Assembly: GCA_031284645.1 (NCBI GenBank)
Contig: JAITXS010000045.1
Location: forward strand, 1-35,120
Length of the DNA: 35,120 bases
From: Spirochaetaceae bacterium
Lineage (GTDB): Bacteria > Spirochaetota > Spirochaetia > Treponematales > Breznakiellaceae
Direction of reading: 5' to 3'
In this document: piece after piece, positions 2-30,761 of the stretch
How the letters are laid out: every line of letters starts with the position of its first letter
How positions within the stretch are numbered: the first letter of the stretch is position 1
Translations under genes and position numbers: made by a program
The notes under the pieces: generated by a model
What the model saw: only the letters and a program-made list of their open reading frames with translations
What the model was told of the DNA's origin: nothing
Databases searched by the model: none

Positions 2-1168
2 TGGGAAGGAGATTATCCCGGGATGGGCGTAAGCTTGAACCGGACGCTGATACGGATTGGCACGGGAAGATCGTATCAGTTAGAGGATACTATGACAGGA
101 CCGGGTATGGTAGGGGGTATACGCTGGATAAGCGAAAATCCGGCTATAGCAAGCGTGGACCAAGATGGGAAGGTAACTGCTAACAACGCGGGGGAAACAA
201 AAATAACCATAAAGAATGGAGATAAGAGTGCGTCCTGTAAGGTTGTGGTATATGACTCTGCCGTGCAGGATCTTGCGATAAAACTTAAGGTAACAACAGA
301 AGGGACGGAAAGAGTAAACGCAACATTCAGGGCTTTACATGATTATTTAGAGTTTCTGCGTACAGAGGTCGGAGAAGATGCCATTAACGAGCTGAAAGCC
401 GAGAACTTTATCCGTCTTGGGGATTATGTGGATTTGCCGTTCCTGTACGTGGACGGGTATCAGGGGGCCGAGGATACCGAGCCTCTTGGGGTGATAAATG
501 AGACAGATAATATTGATTTCGGGGAAAAAGGGCGTTTGCTAAGGATAATCGTGGTCGGGCGGAACTCGTTTAACCCGGGGGCCGGTAACAGTTACTATAA
601 GGGGGGCGTGGAGGATGCCATGCCGCATCTGGTGATGCAGTTTCAGAACATACCCGTATGGCGGGTGTTGCATCATGGTAGTGGGCCTATATCGTATGCG
701 GACAGCGATATGAGGAAATATCTGGTGAAAGTATCTGATCCTGAAGTTTTGGAAGAGGGGAATTTTACGGAGGGTTTAATACTGGCCGGAGTGCCGATGG
801 ATACGGATATCATCTGGGCGCCAAATCGGGAGCTAAACAATACGCTACAAACTGCTGTTGATGAGATTAAGGACAAGCTCTGGCTAGCCACCGAGTGGGA
901 AATGTTTGGAGTCGGCATAATGTTAAATCACACTTTGGAGAACCAGAAGAATCAGGCATTTTTGGAATACTATCTGGAAGAGGGAAACAAAGTGAAGTAT
1001 GCAAAGCGGGAGACTTCTCCCTATTACAAGACTACGGATTATTGGGAAGTATCCCCTAATGCTGCCCTCGGGTCCTCATACTTCCCCTCGCTGTTAAACG
1101 GCACCTTTATCAGGGCGATCTCTATTAATCTGGACAACGGCGTTGCCCCCGCATTCTGTGTGCGCTAG
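2..1168 (+). CDS. Bacterial Ig-like (Big_2) domain protein with uncharacterised C-terminal domain, probably 5'-partial
   Basis: ORF 23..1168. The frame stays open back to nt 2 and there is no signal peptide, so the true start is probably upstream of the window. The N-terminal ~75 aa (SYQLEDT...WISENPAIASVDQDGKVTANNAGETKITIKNGDKSASCKVVVY) fit the Big_2 pattern. The remainder has no motif I can name confidently; the C-terminal GVAPAFCV weakly resembles DUF6273-type ends. Confidence 0.6.
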   Translation, partial: WEGDYPGMGVSLNRTLIRIGTGRSYQLEDTMTGPGMVGGIRWISENPAIASVDQDGKVTANNAGETKITIKNGDKSASCKVVVYDSAVQDLAIKLKVTTEGTERVNATFRALHDYLEFLRTEVGEDAINELKAENFIRLGDYVDLPFLYVDGYQGAEDTEPLGVINETDNIDFGEKGRLLRIIVVGRNSFNPGAGNSYYKGGVEDAMPHLVMQFQNIPVWRVLHHGSGPISYADSDMRKYLVKVSDPEVLEEGNFTEGLILAGVPMDTDIIWAPNRELNNTLQTAVDEIKDKLWLATEWEMFGVGIMLNHTLENQKNQAFLEYYLEEGNKVKYAKRETSPYYKTTDYWEVSPNAALGSSYFPSLLNGTFIRAISINLDNGVAPAFCVR

Positions 1169-1326
1169 GGTTTAAATAAGGGTAGTAGGGTTTAGGGTAG
1201 GGGCTTTCTGGTATTACCAAACCCTTTACCCTATTTAGACCCCGAAGCAAAGGTTTAGGGGCGTTAGGGATGGAGCAGACTTTCTGGTAAGAACTAAACC
1301 CCATACCCTATCCCCAATTACCCTAC
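1166..1326. repeat. Family-1 GGGT/ACCC modular intergenic repeat, about one unit, inverted relative to the 12.3-13.7 kb copies
   Basis: Begins on the TAG stop of the upstream gene. Carries linker motifs CTTTCTGGT (1204-1212 and 1280-1288) and CCCGAAGCAAAGG (1241-1253). Bases 1192-1242 are a perfect reverse complement of 12362-12412. Confidence 0.85.
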
Positions 1327-1333
1327 TTTGGAC

Positions 1334-8978: not shown

Positions 8979-10370
8979 ATGAGTAAAACAGACTCTTTCT
9001 TGAAATTCTCCGCCATGACAGGACAAAGAGGCTGTCAAAAAATCAAGCGCGAAAATCTCCATGCCGGATTCCGTATTATTCCGGCTGGTATTTTCGCGTT
9101 TTTTTTAGCGCTTCCGGTTTCCTGTGCCTCAACGCCTTTTGCACTTGTTGATGAGGAAGTTTCTGCCGGAAGATACCAAAACGCAGAAGATATTTTAGAA
9201 GGAAAAAGAAGCTCTCTGTACGGCAGTGATCTCATTCTTTATTATCTTGACGGCGGTATGCTGAGCCATTACGCCGGTGATTACAAACAATCAATTACAT
9301 TATTAGCTAACGGTGATCACGCTATTGAGGATGCGTTTACCAAAAGCGTTACGGAAAATGCCGCGTCTTTTTTACTGAACGATAATACAAAAACATATAG
9401 CGGCGAAGATTATGAAAACCTGTATTTGAATGTGTTTAACGCCTTGAATTATTATCATGAAAATAATTTGGAAGACGCGATGGTCGAAATTAGAAGAATG
9501 GAAAACAAGCTGCGGGACTTGCAGACAAAATACGATGTTGTTGAACAGGAATTACAGGGAGAAAGCAGCAGCGCAGCGGACTACACGGGTGTAAAAATCA
9601 ATTTTTCAAACTCGGCCTTGGCTCGTTATCTTGGGATATTATTTTATCGGGCACGCAAACAATATGATGACGCACGGATCGATCTTAATTGGCTTAAAAG
9701 AGCTTTTCAACGCCAGAAAAATGTCTATCCCTTCCCCATTCCTTCCACGATAGATGAGGAACTGAAGATTCCCGAAGGAGAAGCCCGTCTTAATGTGTTG
9801 AGTTTCAGCGGTCTTTCCCCGGTAAAAGTCGAGAACGTTATCCGTATTCCTATTCCTCCGTCAAATTGGATAAAAATAGCCCTGCCTGAAATGCAAAAAC
9901 AGCCCTCTGCGGTAACAAGAATCGAAATTGTGTTTGATAGCGGGGAAAAATATAACGCTGAATTATTGGAAGACCTGCAAAATGTGGCTATCGAAACTTT
10001 TAAAATCCATCTTGGCGTGATAACAGCAAAATCCATAATTCGGGGAGCGGCAAAAGGAATAAGCGCCGCCGGTTTAAATGCCGCAGGGGAAGCCGGCAGA
10101 AACCAAAAAGATGGGCAAGGCGGATGGCTCACTCTTGCCGGTCTTGCCGTACAGGTCATGGCGGAATTAAGCGAAAGCGCCGATACGCGGCTTTCGAGAT
10201 ATTTTCCCGCTCAAGCGCATGTATTGGGACTCAGCTTAAAACCGGGAAAGTATACATTTTCGGTAAATTATTATAATAATTACGGAGGCTTGGTTGATTC
10301 GTTTGAACAGAAAGATATTGTTTTATCCGCATCATCATTAAATTTAATTGAAACATATTGTTTAAAATGA
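8979..10370 (+). CDS. Hypothetical lipoprotein
   Basis: GIFAFFLALPVSCAST is a signal peptide plus lipobox after a long N-region; Met13 at 9015 is an alternative start. No catalytic motif recognised. Sits 18 nt after glgA. Confidence 0.55.
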   Translation: MSKTDSFLKFSAMTGQRGCQKIKRENLHAGFRIIPAGIFAFFLALPVSCASTPFALVDEEVSAGRYQNAEDILEGKRSSLYGSDLILYYLDGGMLSHYAGDYKQSITLLANGDHAIEDAFTKSVTENAASFLLNDNTKTYSGEDYENLYLNVFNALNYYHENNLEDAMVEIRRMENKLRDLQTKYDVVEQELQGESSSAADYTGVKINFSNSALARYLGILFYRARKQYDDARIDLNWLKRAFQRQKNVYPFPIPSTIDEELKIPEGEARLNVLSFSGLSPVKVENVIRIPIPPSNWIKIALPEMQKQPSAVTRIEIVFDSGEKYNAELLEDLQNVAIETFKIHLGVITAKSIIRGAAKGISAAGLNAAGEAGRNQKDGQGGWLTLAGLAVQVMAELSESADTRLSRYFPAQAHVLGLSLKPGKYTFSVNYYNNYGGLVDSFEQKDIVLSASSLNLIETYCLK

Positions 10371-11411: not shown

Positions 11412-12353
11412 ATGGATATAAAAAAAATCGCGGAAAATTATATTCCCCTTATTTCATTTATTGTGTTTCTCAGTATTCTCAGCTACCTCTTTTTTTTACG
11501 TCCCCCGATTATCCTTGTTAGTGATGTGTATGTTCACGAGATTTACGGAGAACACGAGGAACGGATGCGGAATTTTGCAAGCTCGTTTAGCGTTTTTCGT
11601 CAAATTAAAGTGATTCGTGTTCCGGAAGATGTGGACAGCTATAGCATGGCGGAAATAATTCAGAGGAATAACGCTTCGCCTTTTTGTGTTTTTTTCCCGT
11701 TCCGTTATCAAGAGATTGCAGAAATTTATCGCGATGAAATCACGCAAAATGGTAATAAGACGACAAAGATATTTGTTATGGCAAATAAAGAGAAGGTTCC
11801 GTCACATGCGGAGCGTATTATCTATACGGTATCCGATGCGGAACGGGATTACTATAGAGCAGGGTACTGCGCGGCGATCTTGTCGAGAGATGAGGGGGCC
11901 TTAAACAATGCACAGCGCAACAGTGAGCGGTACATTGCTTTTATCTATGATCGGGATATAAACGACAGGGGGAAATCGGCTTTTGAAGACGGACTTCTTG
12001 CCGGCGGATTTTCGGGAAAATCACGCTTTAGTTTTAACCAGGAGAGTCTTAGGCCAAATGATTTAGCCTGCGTGGTGGTAGACGGGCCTGCCGATCTCTT
12101 TTTTCAATCTCCTACAGATGTACCGGTTATACTCTTTACATGGCTTGAAAACGAGGATTATTTCCCGAACAATATAAAAATAAGGATTGACGATTCGCCT
12201 TATACGCTTATCTGTCGGACGCTTAAATTGCCGAAAAAAAGCCTGATAGACGGGGCGGTTTTAAAAATCCCTGCTGATTTTCATATCCTTAAAAAAACTC
12301 TTGATAATAAAAAACTAATCAATGAATTGTCGGCAAGAAGGGTAATTGGGTAA
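11412..12353 (+). CDS. Hypothetical membrane-anchored protein
   Basis: 313-aa ORF with an N-terminal hydrophobic helix (YIPLISFIVFLSILSYLFFL). It starts 12 nt after era. The last ~5 codons and the stop are repeat-derived (see findings). Confidence 0.55.
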   Translation: MDIKKIAENYIPLISFIVFLSILSYLFFLRPPIILVSDVYVHEIYGEHEERMRNFASSFSVFRQIKVIRVPEDVDSYSMAEIIQRNNASPFCVFFPFRYQEIAEIYRDEITQNGNKTTKIFVMANKEKVPSHAERIIYTVSDAERDYYRAGYCAAILSRDEGALNNAQRNSERYIAFIYDRDINDRGKSAFEDGLLAGGFSGKSRFSFNQESLRPNDLACVVVDGPADLFFQSPTDVPVILFTWLENEDYFPNNIKIRIDDSPYTLICRTLKLPKKSLIDGAVLKIPADFHILKKTLDNKKLINELSARRVIG

Positions 12354-13095
12354 AGGGTTTAGGGTCTAAATAGGGTAAAGGGTTTGGTAATACCAGAAAG
12401 CCCCTACCCTAACTTAGGGTTTTGGGGAAAGGGTAGAGGGTCTGGGTTTTATCAGAAATACTCTACCCTATACCCCGAACCCTATAACCCTTGCTTCGGG
12501 AGGATGGGTGGAGTTCCGATCCCTCGAATACTCTGCACCCTTTCCCCCTTTTTTACGTGCAATTTTGTAAAATACACTTTTTTGCAGACCCATTAAAGCA
12601 AAAACCACGCGGTGCACTATAAATAAAGCATCATGGCTATAAACAAAAAATATATAATAGGGTTTTGGGTAAAGGGTAATAGGGTTTTGATTTTACCAGA
12701 AATCCTGTACCATACCCAACTTTTCTAAACCTTTGCTGCGGGATGAGGGGTAGAGTTCTGATTTCTCCAATACCCTATTAAGAAGGGTAATTGGGGCAAG
12801 GGTTATAGGGTCTAGCAATATCAGATATATTCCACGCAACCCGAAACCCGAAGCAGGGCGATAGGGGCAAGGGGGCAGATCAGCAGTTATCTTTTATTAC
12901 TATACCCTCTACCCCGAACCCTACTACCCTTATTTAGGGTAATTGGGTTATAGGGTAAAGGGTTTTGGTTTTATCAGGAAGTTACTACCCGCATCCTAAC
13001 TCCCCTAACCCTTTGCTTCGGGTATTAGGTAAAGATGTCTGATCATTTCAATACCCCAAACCCTAGACCCTACTACCCTTCTTTAGGGTTTGGGG
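12354..13095. repeat. Family-1 GGGT/ACCC repeat array, about five units with one unique 110-bp interruption (12546-12657)
   Basis: Approximate unit boundaries are 12337-12414, 12415-12545, 12658-12785, 12786-12935 and 12936-13084. The linkers ACCAGAAAG/ATCAGAAAT, CCTTTGCTTCGGG and CTGATCA recur in the same order. Confidence 0.85.
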
Positions 13096-13449
13096 AGCAC
13101 GGAACGCCTTGAAAAAGCGCTTGGAAAAGCCGTAAACTGGTGTATAGACCATGATATTTTAAAAGATTTTCTGGAAGAAAACTCTACGGAGGTTAACAAT
13201 ATGCTATTTACCGAATGGAATTGGGACGATGCTCTGGAAGTTGCCCGCGAGGAGGGCATTGAGCAAGGTCGTGGAGAAGGTTTGGAAGAAGGCCGTGGAG
13301 AGGGCAGAGAAGAAGGTATTGAAGTGGGTATTGACAGAGGCAGAGAAGAAGGCATTGATAGCTTGTGTGAACTGCTTGAACAGGGATACACTCCCAAAGA
13401 AGCTAGGGAAATGCTGAAAAATAAAAGTAGGGTTTTGGGTAAAGGGTAG
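13090..13449 (+). pseudogene. Orphan C-terminal fragment resembling Rpn/YhgA-like PD-(D/E)XK putative transposase proteins
   Basis: There is no credible start: the TTG at 13090 lies inside a repeat unit. The sequence NMLFTEWNWDDALEVAREEGIEQGRGEGLEEGRGEGREEGIEVGIDRGREEGIDSLCELLEQGYTPKEAREML resembles, from memory, the repetitive C-terminus of that family. The nuclease N-terminal domain is absent. The ORF tail and stop (13428-13449) are repeat sequence. Confidence 0.4.
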
Positions 13450-13660
13450 AGGGTTTAGACTTTATCAGTAAGCCTGCACCATTCCCAACTCTTCTAAACC
13501 TTTACTTTCGGGTATGGGGTCTAAATAGGGTCATGGGTATAGGGTTTAGATTTTACCAGAAAGTTACTACCCGCATCCTAACTCCCCTAACCCTTTGCTT
13601 CGGGTATTAGGTAAAGATGTCTGATCACTCCAAAACCCAATACCCAGAACCCTATGACCC
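13428..13660. repeat. Family-1 GGGT/ACCC repeat, about two units
   Basis: Same linker order as above. Bases 13561-13627 are identical to 12979-13045 (67 bp). The unit 13520-13660 has terminal inverted repeats GGGTCATGGGTATAGGGT / ACCCAGAACCCTATGACCC. Confidence 0.85.
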
Positions 13661-13666
13661 TTCACT

Positions 13667-13750
13667 GTGGGGGTAGCGGAGAAGACCGGAGGCAAGCGTG
13701 AGCGAAGCCGAGGACTTCGGAGCGAGGGGGAGCCGCGAAAAAAATTCCCC
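13667..13750. repeat. Family-2 GC-rich element, intergenic copy abutting the family-1 array
   Basis: GTGGGGGTAGCGGAGAAGACC (21 nt) and CTTCGGAGCGAGGGGGAG (18 nt) are identical to the reverse complement of 17957-18022. CCGCGAA plus GGGGA/TCCCC flanks are shared with the aroC copy. Confidence 0.8.
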
Positions 13751-17956: not shown

Positions 17957-18022
17957 AGGGGGAAGTCTCCCCCTCGCTCCGAAGCCCGCCGCTTCGCGGT
18001 CGGGTCTTCTCCGCTACCCCCA
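17957..18022. repeat. Family-2 GC-rich element, copy inside the ATP-grasp operon (between the ATP-grasp and alpha-E genes)
   Basis: CTCCCCCTCGCTCCGAAG ... GGTCTTCTCCGCTACCCCCAC. There is a flanking AGGGGGA-AGTC-TCCCCCT hairpin (17957-17974) and a GGGGC-TTC-GCCCC hairpin (18029-18041). Confidence 0.8.
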
Positions 18023-19502: not shown

Positions 19503-19596
19503 AATAATAAACAGGAGACTGCTAAAAGATCTGCGAATCCCCCGAATAATAGTCTCCGTATCGATCCCTCATTTACCGGAAGTACTGCTCGGGCAT

Positions 19597-19635
19597 AAAA
19601 AAACCGTTGCCGATAAGGAGGGAAACGGCAACGGT
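19597..19635 (-). terminator. Canonical intrinsic terminator on the minus strand with no annotated gene upstream of it
   Basis: Minus strand reads ACCGTTGCCG-13 nt loop-CGGCAACGGT followed by TTTTTTT (perfect 10-bp GC-rich stem plus a 7-U tract). Confidence 0.5.
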
Positions 19636-19733
19636 AAAGGAGTTATGATGAAGAGAACTATGATTTATTAACCAATCAATACCCCGAAAGGTTACATCCG
19701 GTAGCTCCCATTTTAAAATATACCCCCAAAAAG

Positions 19734-20010
19734 AGGGGTAATGGGGTCTAGGGTAGTAGGGTCTAGGGTTGGGGTATTGAAATGATTAGACATCTTTACC
19801 TCATACCCGAAGCAAAGGGTTAGGAGCGTTAAGGATGGGGCAGGGAATTTCTCGTAAAATCTCTACCCCAAACCCAAGGAGAAGGGTGATTGAGTTCTGG
19901 GTAGGGGCTTTCTGATAAAACCAAGACCCCATACCCTTTACCCATGACCCTCTACCCTCTACCCTCTACCCTCTACCCTCTACCCTCTACCCAATTACCC
20001 AAAACCCTAA
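19734..20010. repeat. Family-1 GGGT/ACCC repeat, about two units in inverted orientation, in a divergent promoter region
   Basis: Bases 19773-19838 are the near-identical reverse complement of the conserved core at 12992-13055. The linkers CCCGAAGCAAAGGG and CTTTCTGATAAAA are present. Confidence 0.85.
19948..19992. repeat. Perfect heptanucleotide tandem repeat (CCCTCTA)x6 plus CCC
   Basis: Six exact copies were counted from 19948 to 19989. They are embedded in a run of 12 C3-4 tracts spaced 3-5 nt apart (19927-20007). Confidence 0.95.
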
Positions 20011-20112
20011 GGTAGATATGTTTCAAATATGAATCGGAGGATAAACGCATAGAGTTTATCCTGCTCGTGAGCACTTGTCTAAGAAAAAGAATTACCCGAT
20101 AATATTTCTATA

Positions 20113-27819: not shown

Positions 27820-28552
27820 AAATCTTCATAAACATTTTGGAAAACTGGAAATCCTTAACGGTATCAACGAAAGAATCAGGAAGGGAGAGAAAGTATCTAT
27901 TGTAGGCCCTTCCGGATCGGGGAAAAGCACCTTTTTACGCTGCTTAAACCTGTTGGAAGCCCCAAGCCAAGGTGAAATTTGGTTTGAGGGCAGGCAATAT
28001 ACGACAAAAAGCCCGGATTTAGGAAGGATGCGGCAGCGGATGGGCATGGTTTTTCAGCATTTTAACCTCTTTCCGCATCTGAGCGTGATGAAAAACATTA
28101 CACTTGCACCGGTAACGCTGAAATTGCAGACAAAAGACGAAGCCGAGGCAAAGGCGCACGAGCTTTTGAGGCGCATCGGGCTTCTTGATAAGGCAAAAGT
28201 CTATCCGGCAATGCTTTCCGGCGGACAAAAACAACGCATTGCCATTATACGATCTCTTGCGATGAATCCTGATGTGATGCTTTTTGACGAACCGACAAGC
28301 GCTCTTGATCCGGAAATGGTTGGGGAAGTGCTTGATCTTATCAAGCAGCTTGCACAGGAAGGGATGACTATGGTCATTGTTACGCACGAGATGGGCTTTG
28401 CCCGTGAAGTTTCAACGCGGGTGTTATTCATGGAAGACGGTCTTATCCGCGAACAAAATACCCCCCAAGAATTTTTTGCAAATCCTCAAAATGAACGCTT
28501 AAAGTTTTTCTTGTCAAAAATATTGAATATTTCATCAGCGATTCCCGTTTGA
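27806..28552 (+). CDS. Amino-acid ABC transporter ATP-binding protein
   Basis: Walker [11 protein letters not shown]-loop, signature [11 protein letters not shown], Walker [13 protein letters not shown]-loop VTHEM. GTG start. Confidence 0.93.
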
Positions 28553-28560
28553 AACCTGGC

Positions 28561-28732
28561 TTAGGGTTTGGGGTATTGGGGCTGGGGTATAGTTCTTACC
28601 AGAAAGTCCCTACCCTATACCCAACTCCCCTTGACCCTTGCTTCGGGGTAGAAGGGCGGGGTCAAGAGTGGCGAATGTCTATCACTCCCCTACCCTATAC
28701 CCTCATTTAGGGTCATGGGGTAGGGTAGGGGT
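28561..28732. repeat. Family-1 GGGT/ACCC repeat, one unit plus a partial G-arm
   Basis: TTAGGGTTTGGGGTATTGGGGCTGGGG - TTACCAGAAAG - TCCCTACCCTATACCC - CCCTTGCTTCGGGG - ... ATGTCTATCA - CTCCCCTACCCTATACCC, then GGGTCATGGGGTAGGGTAGGGG. Confidence 0.85.
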
Positions 28733-28754
28733 AAGAAATCATATCTCAAAAAAC

Positions 28755-30761
28755 TTACTCGTCAATGACGATGTCTTTTTTTAACTGATTAAAACGATCT
28801 GTTAAATCAGCTTCTGTGGGATTTTCAACGGACATATAGAGTGTCCAGCGTACATTTTCGTTGGGAATTTTTGCCGGAAGTATTGTGCCTATTGTACCGT
28901 TGTTGTCTTTAAGGGAAATCGCGGGTTTCCCGTTAAAGGGAAATCTTTCCTCAATGAGGTCTTCCCAATCCTCGCGGTAATTACTGCCCAGTCTCGGATC
29001 AGGCTTGGAGTTCATCGCAAGTACCAGAAAATCCTGCTCCCGCGAATTCTGGTTTATAACGAGTTTGGTAATGCCGTGTCCGATTGTTTTGTCGATCTGA
29101 TAAAACGAGGGTAGCATATATAATTCTGAAATGTCCGACCAGTCAAAAATGTTGTTTTCTGCTGTAATTGAAAAAGTGGGGAAGGAAAAGGCGATTTTCT
29201 TATCTTTTTTGTCCCAATTAAACGAAAAATCCGTCAAAAAATCGGGTATATAATTATCCAGCTGCAAAAAATCGTCCCATTCCGTAAAGGTTCCCGAATA
29301 GGCGGCGTGAATATGGTTACAAATTTTTTCCATGTCCCATTCATAGACAAACTGTTCATCGGTAGATTGAATGCTTGAAAGCATCACGGGGCCGCCGGGT
29401 AAGGGTAGAATATAAGCAATCAGCACTTTATTATCGAAGGGCACAAGCCAGCTTGTCTTAACCCATGTTCTGCCGACAGCATCAATATAGGTCTCAACAG
29501 CATTGGGATCACCTAAAGAAAAAATCCGGTATTTATTGGCTCCCCAAAGAGTGCGGTCAAGCCGCCAATTCCGCAAGATTAAATCCATAATAAAACGCGG
29601 ATCCGTATCAAGCAGATCGAGCGGGACTGTTTTGGGTCTGACGATTTTAAAAAGATCAAATTCGGAGATATGGGCGTAGAGGAGTTTTCCGTCATCGTTT
29701 AGGTCAATTCTTTCGATATCACTGCGGGCAAGTTTCCAGTTATCATCATTTCGGTCAACAAAATCAACCTGAGGGAAAATCGAGCTCATTGAGGCGTTAA
29801 AAAGATAGGCGTTGTTTTCTCCGGTTAAATAAGCGGGTGCTTGATTAAAAAGCTTTGTCATCGCCTGAACATAGGCTGTCTTATAGGGTGATACAATGTC
29901 ACGCTGAACGGCTTTGTAATTCGCCGGTAAGGGGACGCTACATTCAAAGACTTCTACCAGTTTATTAGAAAGAAGAACATGGGCATAACCGGGCTTGATC
30001 CGGTACCGGAGCATATCCCGCGGATAATTTACAATTACGGAAGCAGGTGTAGAATAGAGAATATTGTCGCGCAGGCTGGTAACCAAACCGAGTACCTTCC
30101 CCTCAGGGCTTACCAGAGGGCCGCCGGAATTACCCGGATTACCGTCTGCGGAAGATTTTAAAAGCTGCCATCTGCCTGATTCTGCTTCGGGAACCGTGCC
30201 CAAGATAAGTCCGTTCCGCCGCACAATCCCCTCGCCAAGAGCATTCCCTATACTAAAAACCGGCTGTTCATCTTCGTAGGCTGTATCAAATTCAAAAAAG
30301 CGCGTGAAGCGCGGGTGATCTTTTATGGTAAAGACAAGAAAATCCCTCTCGTTATTGCCGCCGGTAACCTGATCAATCTCAAAAACTCCGCCTTTTGAAT
30401 CGCGGACATAGTATTTTTTATAAATCGCGCTTTCGATTCCCAGATTAATAACATGGAAAGCGGTGATTAATTCAGTGGGTGATATGGCAAAAGCTGTTCC
30501 GATTGAATAGTATTTGTCCGTACGTATCTGATAGGGAACGGCATCCCAATCAAGCTCTTTTTCATATATAAGCGGGTCTGCTTCCGTATCCGGTTTTTCC
30601 AAAACTACTTCGAAAACAGCATCTTTAACAAGCGTTTTTGCCTCCGAAGAAAGCTCGACCCGGCCTGAGTAAGTGCCTGTTCCCCCCTGACCACTTACAC
30701 AGGAAAAACACAGGAGAAGCGCAAGGCCGGCAAAACACCATAATTTTTTGAGTTTATTCAT
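28755..30761 (-). CDS. Trypsin-like (S1 family) serine protease lipoprotein with a large uncharacterised C-terminal region
   Basis: Signal and lipobox LLLCFSCVSG. Catalytic contexts are TAFHVI (His), ERDFLVF (Asp) and GNPGNSGGPLV (Ser) within the first ~240 aa. The remaining ~430 aa have no motif I recognise. Confidence 0.8.
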   Translation of the reverse strand: MNKLKKLWCFAGLALLLCFSCVSGQGGTGTYSGRVELSSEAKTLVKDAVFEVVLEKPDTEADPLIYEKELDWDAVPYQIRTDKYYSIGTAFAISPTELITAFHVINLGIESAIYKKYYVRDSKGGVFEIDQVTGGNNERDFLVFTIKDHPRFTRFFEFDTAYEDEQPVFSIGNALGEGIVRRNGLILGTVPEAESGRWQLLKSSADGNPGNSGGPLVSPEGKVLGLVTSLRDNILYSTPASVIVNYPRDMLRYRIKPGYAHVLLSNKLVEVFECSVPLPANYKAVQRDIVSPYKTAYVQAMTKLFNQAPAYLTGENNAYLFNASMSSIFPQVDFVDRNDDNWKLARSDIERIDLNDDGKLLYAHISEFDLFKIVRPKTVPLDLLDTDPRFIMDLILRNWRLDRTLWGANKYRIFSLGDPNAVETYIDAVGRTWVKTSWLVPFDNKVLIAYILPLPGGPVMLSSIQSTDEQFVYEWDMEKICNHIHAAYSGTFTEWDDFLQLDNYIPDFLTDFSFNWDKKDKKIAFSFPTFSITAENNIFDWSDISELYMLPSFYQIDKTIGHGITKLVINQNSREQDFLVLAMNSKPDPRLGSNYREDWEDLIEERFPFNGKPAISLKDNNGTIGTILPAKIPNENVRWTLYMSVENPTEADLTDRFNQLKKDIVIDE

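Follow-up and report, generated by a model that had tools for sequence, protein, structure and literature searches.

A family of GGGT- and ACCC-rich repeats was examined in a 35,120-nt stretch of contig JAITXS010000045.1 (positions 1 to 35,120, 44% G+C; termed the window) from a Spirochaetaceae bacterium (assembly GCA_031284645.1). A unit of ∼145 to 150 nt is present in about 12 copies, whole or partial, at five loci, designated A to E. We interpret these units, with a probability of roughly 0.65, as a lineage-specific, non-coding and non-autonomous interspersed DNA repeat of an uncultured spirochaete that behaves like a MITE (miniature inverted-repeat transposable element) or a REPIN. The host is probably an uncultured termite-gut spirochaete; the closest homologues bear the names of Spirochaetaceae and Treponema metagenome-assembled genomes (MAGs), which we take to be termite-gut organisms, and these names agree with the spirochaete host that the original prediction had implied. 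The family is unnamed in databases, in agreement with the original prediction, which had been made from the sequence letters of the window and had offered no name. An Rfam search of the window detected only a tRNA-Gly above threshold and no family for the units, a relaxed Rfam search of positions 12300 to 13700 (E up to 5) gave only sub-threshold matches resembling microRNA hairpins (30.6 bits against a threshold of 80), and BLAST searches of plasmid and phage sequences with one full unit, U2, yielded no match.

All five loci were found where the prediction had placed them. When 100-nt windows were scored for GGGT or ACCC, those reaching the threshold of at least five were confined to positions 1131 to 1320, 12281 to 13150, 13411 to 13730, 19661 to 20070 and 28521 to 28790. 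A degenerate 29-nt arm-plus-loop pattern, spanning the G-arm end and the adjoining first linker, matched the window five times as compared with zero matches in 100 dinucleotide-preserving shuffles. An nhmmer profile built from ten copies of the GGGT/ACCC unit detected 12 dominant-strand matches in the window (E values of 1e-7 to 6e-37), seven of which were at least 120 nt in length, the other five being shorter partial copies. BLAST comparison of two full units with the window recovered all of the loci. In these comparisons U2 (12933 to 13088) exhibited 87% identity over 141 nt to U3 (13520 to 13663), 87.5% identity over 112 nt to the inverted unit U4 (19859 to 19750) and 75% identity over 158 nt to the inverted unit U1 (1325 to 1173).

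The fixed module order that had been proposed was observed in both an alignment of ten copies (A1) and an alignment of nine copies, three of them from other contigs (A2). This order is a G arm, TTTTAYCAGAAAG, a C arm, CCTTTGCTTCGGG, a short G arm, TCTGATCA and a terminal C arm. A full unit makes up a single long imperfect palindrome: the terminal C arm is complementary to the outer G arm (as in U2, U3 and units L005a and L008a of the other contigs), the two linkers (..ATCAGA.. and ..TCTGAT..) are able to pair through their complementary CAGA and TCTG, and the short G arm pairs with the inner C arm around an apical CCTTTGCTTCGGG. RNA folds of the units tested had z-scores of −2.2 to −4.1 relative to composition-matched shuffles, while DNA folds had z-scores of −2.1 to −3.8 for most copies. 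Half-units, made up of a G arm, a loop and a C arm, form folds independently. As every G arm is complementary to every C arm, half-units can fold alone and units can recombine with one another. The earlier view of an interspersed, modular, hairpin-forming family with terminal inverted arms is supported, and the terminal inverted repeats noted earlier for the unit at 13520 are the clearest of any copy (13520 to 13661). Unit lengths range from 120 to 155 nt, and the reading frames of the units are rich in stop codons.

The arms are periodic. GGGT/ACCC spacings were 7 nt in 41 of 70 cases and 8 nt in a further 14, and the outer arm usually comprises four GGG tracts at the 7-nt spacing, four also being the modal number of tracts per arm (17 of the 35 runs of tracts). 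The window has 19 canonical G-quadruplex motifs, 10 on the plus strand and 9 on the minus strand, and all of them are located inside the five loci. At locus D, the TACCCTC heptamer of a C arm has expanded to ∼8.7 tandem copies (19932 to 19992), yielding 12 consecutive C3 tracts (19927 to 20007).

Locus A (1166 to 1329, minus strand) contains one full unit, matched by nhmmer at 1329 to 1236 (E = 8e-26), in which a second G-loop-C module (1177 to 1234, minus strand; E = 2e-11) stands in place of the 3′ half. Locus B, on the plus strand, begins with a half-unit detected by nhmmer and consisting of a G arm, a TACCAGAAAG loop and a C arm (12335 to 12413). This half-unit is followed by a unit that folds as two successive hairpins (12411 to 12551; RNA fold z-score of −4.1, E = 2e-35) and is followed by a T6 run (12549 to 12555); by U5, the 3′ arm of which is truncated (12658 to 12776; E = 8e-31); by a degenerate unit in which the core, CCCGAAGCAGGG, is inverted internally (12781 to 12932), matched weakly on both strands (plus, E = 1e-7; minus, E = 6e-10) and not assigned to either; and by the full unit U2 (12933 to 13085; E = 6e-37). 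Locus C, also on the plus strand, is composed of a half-unit with a G arm, a loop, a C arm and TTTACTTTCGGG (13428 to 13519; E = 2e-24) and the full unit U3 (13520 to 13661; RNA and DNA fold z-scores of −3.5 and −3.65, respectively, E = 4e-36). Locus D (19735 to 20009, minus strand) lies between divergent genes and contains U4 (19877 to 19747) and a half-unit (19954 to 19876), both detected by nhmmer on the minus strand. Locus E (28562 to 28733, plus strand) fills the spacer between convergent genes for an ABC-ATPase and a trypsin-like protease, and holds one unit (28562 to 28703; fold z-score of −3.9, E = 2e-35) and an additional C-arm/G-arm hairpin (28687 to 28733), both on the plus strand.

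Convergent genes flank loci A, B/C and E while divergent genes flank locus D, a context that had been described correctly. The genes near the loci are ordinary chromosomal ones, encoding chorismate synthase, glycogen synthase, Era, methionine aminopeptidase (MetAP), HtpG, a sigma factor and an ABC transporter. A scan for mobile-element genes covered the 30 major open reading frames (ORFs) of the window, among which no transposase, integrase or Y1 enzyme was present; the called genes of the related contig L005 likewise included no Y1 transposase (RAYT) gene. Several of the flanking genes run into the repeats. The TAG stop codon of a Big_2 gene (1166 to 1168) forms the first 3 nt of element A, and the element ends 5 nt short of the stop codon of a convergent Zn-ribbon gene. 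The first unit of locus B supplies the last five codons and the TAA stop codon of a 313-aa ORF (11412 to 12353), and the half-unit of locus C supplies the last codons and TAG stop codon of the ORF ending at 13449. Units provide stop codons and C-terminal tails to adjacent ORFs, and introduce into 3′ untranslated regions a long hairpin or, on each strand, a G-quadruplex motif. The prediction that all copies are intergenic was accurate relative to intact genes but not for these three ORFs, which obtain their last codons or a stop codon from a unit, nor for the cluster at 12335 to 13661, which holds remnants of an rpn-family gene and the ORF at 13090/13201 to 13449.

The repeat family was also found on two contigs, L005 and L008, of Joint Genome Institute (JGI) metagenome 3300042624. 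Units occupy positions 9858 to 10820 of L005, while L008 contains one unit (369 to 516) and the end of another (1 to 55). The neighbours of these units, a glycerate kinase gene and FGE-sulfatase genes, differ from those in the window. The number of units following a shared AAAAG|TAGGGT junction varied from one on L008 to about two on L005 and about 1.6 in the window. No units were detected on L006 and L007, which carry a homologue (59% identity) of the RpnS-like ORF described below, or in 12.8 kb of L009 around a gene that is 44% identical to the 313-aa gene and likewise Era-linked. Window proteins led only to short Logan contigs of the same strain; those of run SRR14710888 were identical to the window and reproduced the gene-to-unit junction independently. 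One of these contigs (L010) matches window positions 1370 to 1241 on the minus strand with its positions 880 to 1008 and breaks off precisely at the CCTTTGCTTCGGG core, which is the behaviour expected for a k-mer common to many genomic copies.

Broader searches gave chance matches or none. The exact core CCTAAMCCTTTGCTTCGGG had two matches among species-representative genomes, both due to chance and without G or C arms. A search of JGI metagenome contigs with the arm-plus-loop pattern gave a single chance match, in a coding region; this is a weak negative, as sample 3300042624 is evidently absent from that collection and yet its contig L005 carries the pattern. Three patterns searched against viral contigs gave zero matches. 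Concatenated six-frame translations of four units had no match at an E value of ≤0.1 among 5.8 billion proteins, the peptides being too short for this database.

The largest cluster of units (12335 to 13661) is, judging from its sequence, a decayed Rpn-family gene whose nuclease part has been replaced by units. Members of the Rpn family were formerly annotated as 'putative transposase' and are now seen as nuclease toxins with internal antitoxins. The statement that no transposase is attached to the repeats, while correct for the 30 major ORFs, had, therefore, overlooked the position of the largest cluster within such a gene. A stretch at 12556 to 12657 (plus strand) is not repeat but a 5′ remnant of the gene, consisting of a promoter-like stretch, an ATG at 12633 and the first nine codons (MAINKKYII), and is conserved on L005 (9940 to 10027). 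This remnant is ended by the next unit at a junction, AAATATATAA|TAGGGTTTTGGGTA, that is identical in the window and on L005. Exactly one unit occupies the place of the nuclease core on L005, from codon 9 to INKGKN, while in the window the core has been replaced by three units and the deletion extends further in. At the other side of the lost core, the rpn coding remnant resumes with GGGTTTGGGGAGCA at the 3′ end of U2. This junction recurs on L008 (1 to 60), and by inspection 54 of 55 nt of this upstream unit-to-gene junction are identical between the window and L008.

A small ORF located between the unit clusters (13090 to 13449, plus strand) resembles RpnS, the intragenic antitoxin of the Rpn (YhgA-like, TIGR01784) toxin (Zhong et al. 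2023, PMC10400941). All 76 of its homologues are ≤207 aa and most are from MAGs named Treponema or Spirochaetaceae; several are labelled 'TIGR01784 family' or 'predicted transposase YdaD' by JGI. Three longer homologues (P0057, P0027 and P0068) match the C-terminal half of TIGR01784 with E values of 6e-6 to 9e-8, below the curated cut-off of 52.1 bits, and it is only through these that the window ORF reaches the family, a difference from Rpn proper; its own matches to family models were only to EG repeats of the FliH/Yae1 type. The probable start is an internal ATG at 13201, with a GGAGG (13188 to 13192) 8 nt upstream, and 12-nt (4-aa) EG repeats (13285 to 13358) begin 19 residues after this Met. 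Indels between copies of the ORF are exactly 4 and 8 codons long. The ratio of nonsynonymous to synonymous substitutions (dN/dS) is 0.12 to 0.30 among the window, L005 and L008, indicating that the ORF is maintained by purifying selection. The internal ATG with its Shine-Dalgarno sequence, the 4- and 8-codon indels and the dN/dS values fit RpnS, which is likewise a C-terminal helical domain with variable 4-aa (12-nt) repeats and an internal Met preceded by a Shine-Dalgarno sequence of its own, and of which small free-standing homologues are known (PMC10400941). In contrast to the published Rpn/RpnS arrangement, the nuclease part is gone from the window, repeat units are present instead and the small ORF is multi-copy and unit-bordered. 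A profile search of PDB gave nothing for this ORF, a Foldseek search of PDB gave no meaningful match, and its AlphaFold model was poor (pLDDT of 61.7, pTM of 0.34).

As far as can be read from the close homologues, the stand-alone RpnS-like ORF is multi-copy and bordered by units in every close copy. It recurs with the units in at least nine copies; all nine close copies end in ...NKSRV(I/L/M/V/E)G, indicating that each runs into a unit and does so at one and the same junction, AAAAG|TAGGGT. The close homologues P0002 to P0008 and P0012 exhibit 63 to 84% identity, and at least five belong to a single NCBI MAG (locus tags LBV68), which is probably the source of the window. A number of this MAG's proteins are 'partial' and start where the upstream unit would lie, which is consistent with assembly breaks in the repeat. 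The repeat explains both assembly breaks in this organism and the odd C-terminal tails (...RVIG) produced by gene callers. A more distant rpn-type gene, on L006 (9840 to 10396), has an internal deletion that joins its N-terminal part, MKVNKKLKDSLFSFLFSN..., directly to the C-terminal domain. No GGGT units are present near this gene, and internally deleted rpn genes are seemingly common in these spirochaetes.

Several features of the units recall MITEs such as the Correia/NEMIS elements of Neisseria, RUP of pneumococcus and ERIC/IRU of enterobacteria. Like these, the units are non-coding sequences of 100 to 150 nt with inverted terminal arms forming an imperfect palindrome, and are multi-copy, mostly located between genes, found in both orientations and in part truncated. 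The terminal inverted repeats are of the kind by which MITEs are recognized (at least 10 to 15 bp on a short non-coding unit). Spirochaete genomes (Leptospira, Sediminispirochaeta and Treponema) have been reported to be unusually MITE-rich (PMC11602168), and hence a repeat family of this kind is expected. Small palindromic repeats are, moreover, common in bacteria, and the presence of the family is in itself no surprise. There are also differences: Correia elements have a TA target-site duplication while none was seen for the window units, the arms of MITEs are unique sequence rather than periodic G3-tract heptads, and the units have neither sequence similarity to these elements nor a detected partner insertion sequence sharing their ends. 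Pneumococcal BOX elements are similar in having few module types in a fixed order, a variable number of modules and stable secondary structure, but are built of boxA, boxB(n) and boxC rather than complementary G and C heptad arms, and are unrelated in sequence and host phylum. The suggestion of a REP/BOX/MITE-like element was, accordingly, borne out as an analogy to MITE, REP/BIME and BOX repeats but not as membership of REP, BOX or BIME, there being no sequence similarity, no conserved GTAG head and no RAYT in view.

A MITE/REPIN-like repeat would account for the distribution of the copies as follows. Units would have been copied by a trans-acting enzyme encoded outside the window, and recombination or gene conversion between complementary arms would afterwards have reshuffled the copies, giving rise to truncated, nested and inverted copies and to variable numbers of units. 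Truncated, nested and inverted members are indeed present in the alignments and among the nhmmer matches. A 51-nt module at 1192 to 1242 recurs in inverted orientation and with 100% identity at 12362 to 12412, in a locus 11 kb away, although the family is otherwise only ∼70 to 87% alike. Clusters would gather at the 3′ ends of genes, where insertions are tolerated, and units may persist there because insertions at such sites do little harm. In the main cluster, units would have replaced the Rpn nuclease part and the RpnS-like ORF would have been carried around with its flanking units.

A number of observations weigh against this interpretation. No target-site duplication, which for a strict MITE would be 2 to 10 bp, was visible on inspection of the outer boundaries of loci A to E, L005 and L008. 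Several element ends have the form TA|GGGT...ACCC|TA, but not those at locus B (left), locus D (left) and locus C (right), and the term MITE applies, therefore, in a loose sense only. No mobilising enzyme was found in the window or related contigs, and transposition is accordingly inferred rather than shown. The copy counts derive from 35 kb of the source genome and 12.5 kb of related contigs. Three copies had DNA fold z-scores near −1, no better than shuffles. In both alignments, the most conserved columns are the linkers and arm ends and not the stems; there may, therefore, be a sequence-specific protein partner, and this conservation could reflect a sequence-specific host function instead of selfish spread.

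A true REP/BIME (REPIN) system would also generate such units but is an unlikely source of them. The G-loop-C hairpins would then be REPIN-type doublets, moved by a single-copy RAYT (an IS200/IS605-like Y1 transposase) located at another site of the genome, while BIME-like mosaics would make up the 150-nt units. The hairpin doublets, the clusters of alternating orientation, the sites after stop codons between convergent genes, the absence of target-site duplication and the apparent independence of half-units as modules, exemplified by the identical 51-nt module, all agree with this explanation, as does the conservation of linkers between mosaic hairpin modules. The window modules are, however, about twice as long as those of REP/BIME systems, and the loops are the best-conserved parts, exceeding the stems. 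The arms are arrays of heptad G tracts and not palindromes of 20 to 40 nt headed by a conserved GTAG: although some arms contain GTAG (GGGTAGAGGGT), neither A1 nor A2 has it as a conserved column. No Y1 transposase was present among the 30 window ORFs or on the related contigs, ∼47 kb in all.

The recurrent association with rpn sequences raises a second alternative, which we consider improbable, wherein the Rpn family has the units as its DNA partner. The units would act as cis sites, either as the ends of an rpn-carrying element or as recombination substrates, in the movement of rpn/rpnS cassettes, with solo units being miniature derivatives; the units would be mobilised as substrates of the Rpn nuclease or would serve as portable homology moving rpnS cassettes. 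In keeping with such a link, the reading frame of every close RpnS-like homologue enters a unit at the same junction, the window and L008 have the upstream unit-to-gene junction in common, a single unit replaces the nuclease core on L005 and the block adjoins different genes each time. Four of the five window loci, however, are without rpn sequence, units were not seen to flank any intact rpnL gene, and the distant rpnS homologues on L006 and L007 lack units. Published work found no repeats or duplications around rpn genes (PMC10400941), and two multi-copy sequences may merely collect in the same dispensable DNA. If this explanation were true, the units would be the first repeat ends to be defined for a family that has long carried the annotation 'putative transposase' and would offer a route for the spread of orphan RpnS antitoxins. 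The recurrence of the repeat with a conserved multi-copy RpnS-like gene is, in any case, a lead on the rearrangement of Rpn defence genes and the origin of orphan antitoxins.

It is also doubtful that the units are host-functional RNA or DNA signals kept by selection at gene ends, such as stabilisers of mRNA 3′ ends, terminators or G-quadruplex elements. Four of the five loci are at 3′ ends, the hairpins are stable and one unit is followed by T6 (12549 to 12555). The preference for four tracts agrees with the requirement for G-quadruplex formation and with heptameric GGGNATC repeats of Xanthomonas and Nostoc, which are transcribed and lie within 50 bp of stop codons (Rehm et al. 2015, PMC4692102). 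The GGGNATC and GGGGA(C/T)T G-quadruplex repeats of these genera share with the window units the 7-nt period of G3 tracts, the four-tract preference, the non-coding position near stop codons and local heptamer expansion (TACCCTC × 8.7 in the window). They are, however, simple tandem repeats while the units have variable heptad spacers, a complementary C arm for each G arm and non-repetitive conserved linkers. Against such a signal, one locus lies between divergent genes, and units occur in both orientations and in truncated and nested forms. RNAalifold detected no compensatory covariation for the RNA fold (covariation terms of +0.17 on nine units and +1.75 kcal/mol on six units, neither of which contributes to the fold), most pairs being invariant. 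With this weak consensus and absent covariation, a selected RNA gene was rejected, as was a terminator role, terminator-like sites not being enriched (6 found as compared with 3.5 expected). An integration host factor site in the ATCAG loop was rejected since WATCARNNNNTTR was matched by U2 only. Integron attC sites were dismissed on account of housekeeping neighbours in both orientations (MetAP, Era, the ABC transporter and HtpG), the absence of an integrase and unit ends of the form TAGGGT/ACCCTA, attC core sites being GTTRRRY/RYYYAAC. As a MITE/REPIN-like repeat, the family has arms of regular G3 heptads, four tracts each and on both strands, and would be a clean natural example of a mobile-type repeat in which hairpin formation competes with that of a G-quadruplex or i-motif.

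Other features of the window were noted in passing. A terminator-like hairpin, CCGTTGCCG...CGGCAACGG, followed by T7 is present at ∼19590 to 19630 on the minus strand, in the spacer that separates the divergent genes for an ATP-grasp protein and an S41 peptidase; no gene is called upstream of it. The 313-aa protein encoded beside Era (11412 to 12353) had no Pfam or NCBIfam match. It has four homologues with 38 to 47% identity, all from JGI metagenomes and one of them (L009) also Era-linked; as the nearest relative is only 47% identical, there is no close orthologous locus in the database. A second small repeat, GCGAAGCCGAGGACTTCGGAGCGAGGGGGAG, is present as an inverted pair with 90% complementarity at 13702 to 13732 and 17967 to 17997. 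The MetAP gene has one copy just downstream of it, while an Alpha-E domain ORF contains the other, and Logan contig L003 terminates in the first of these copies, at window position 13712.

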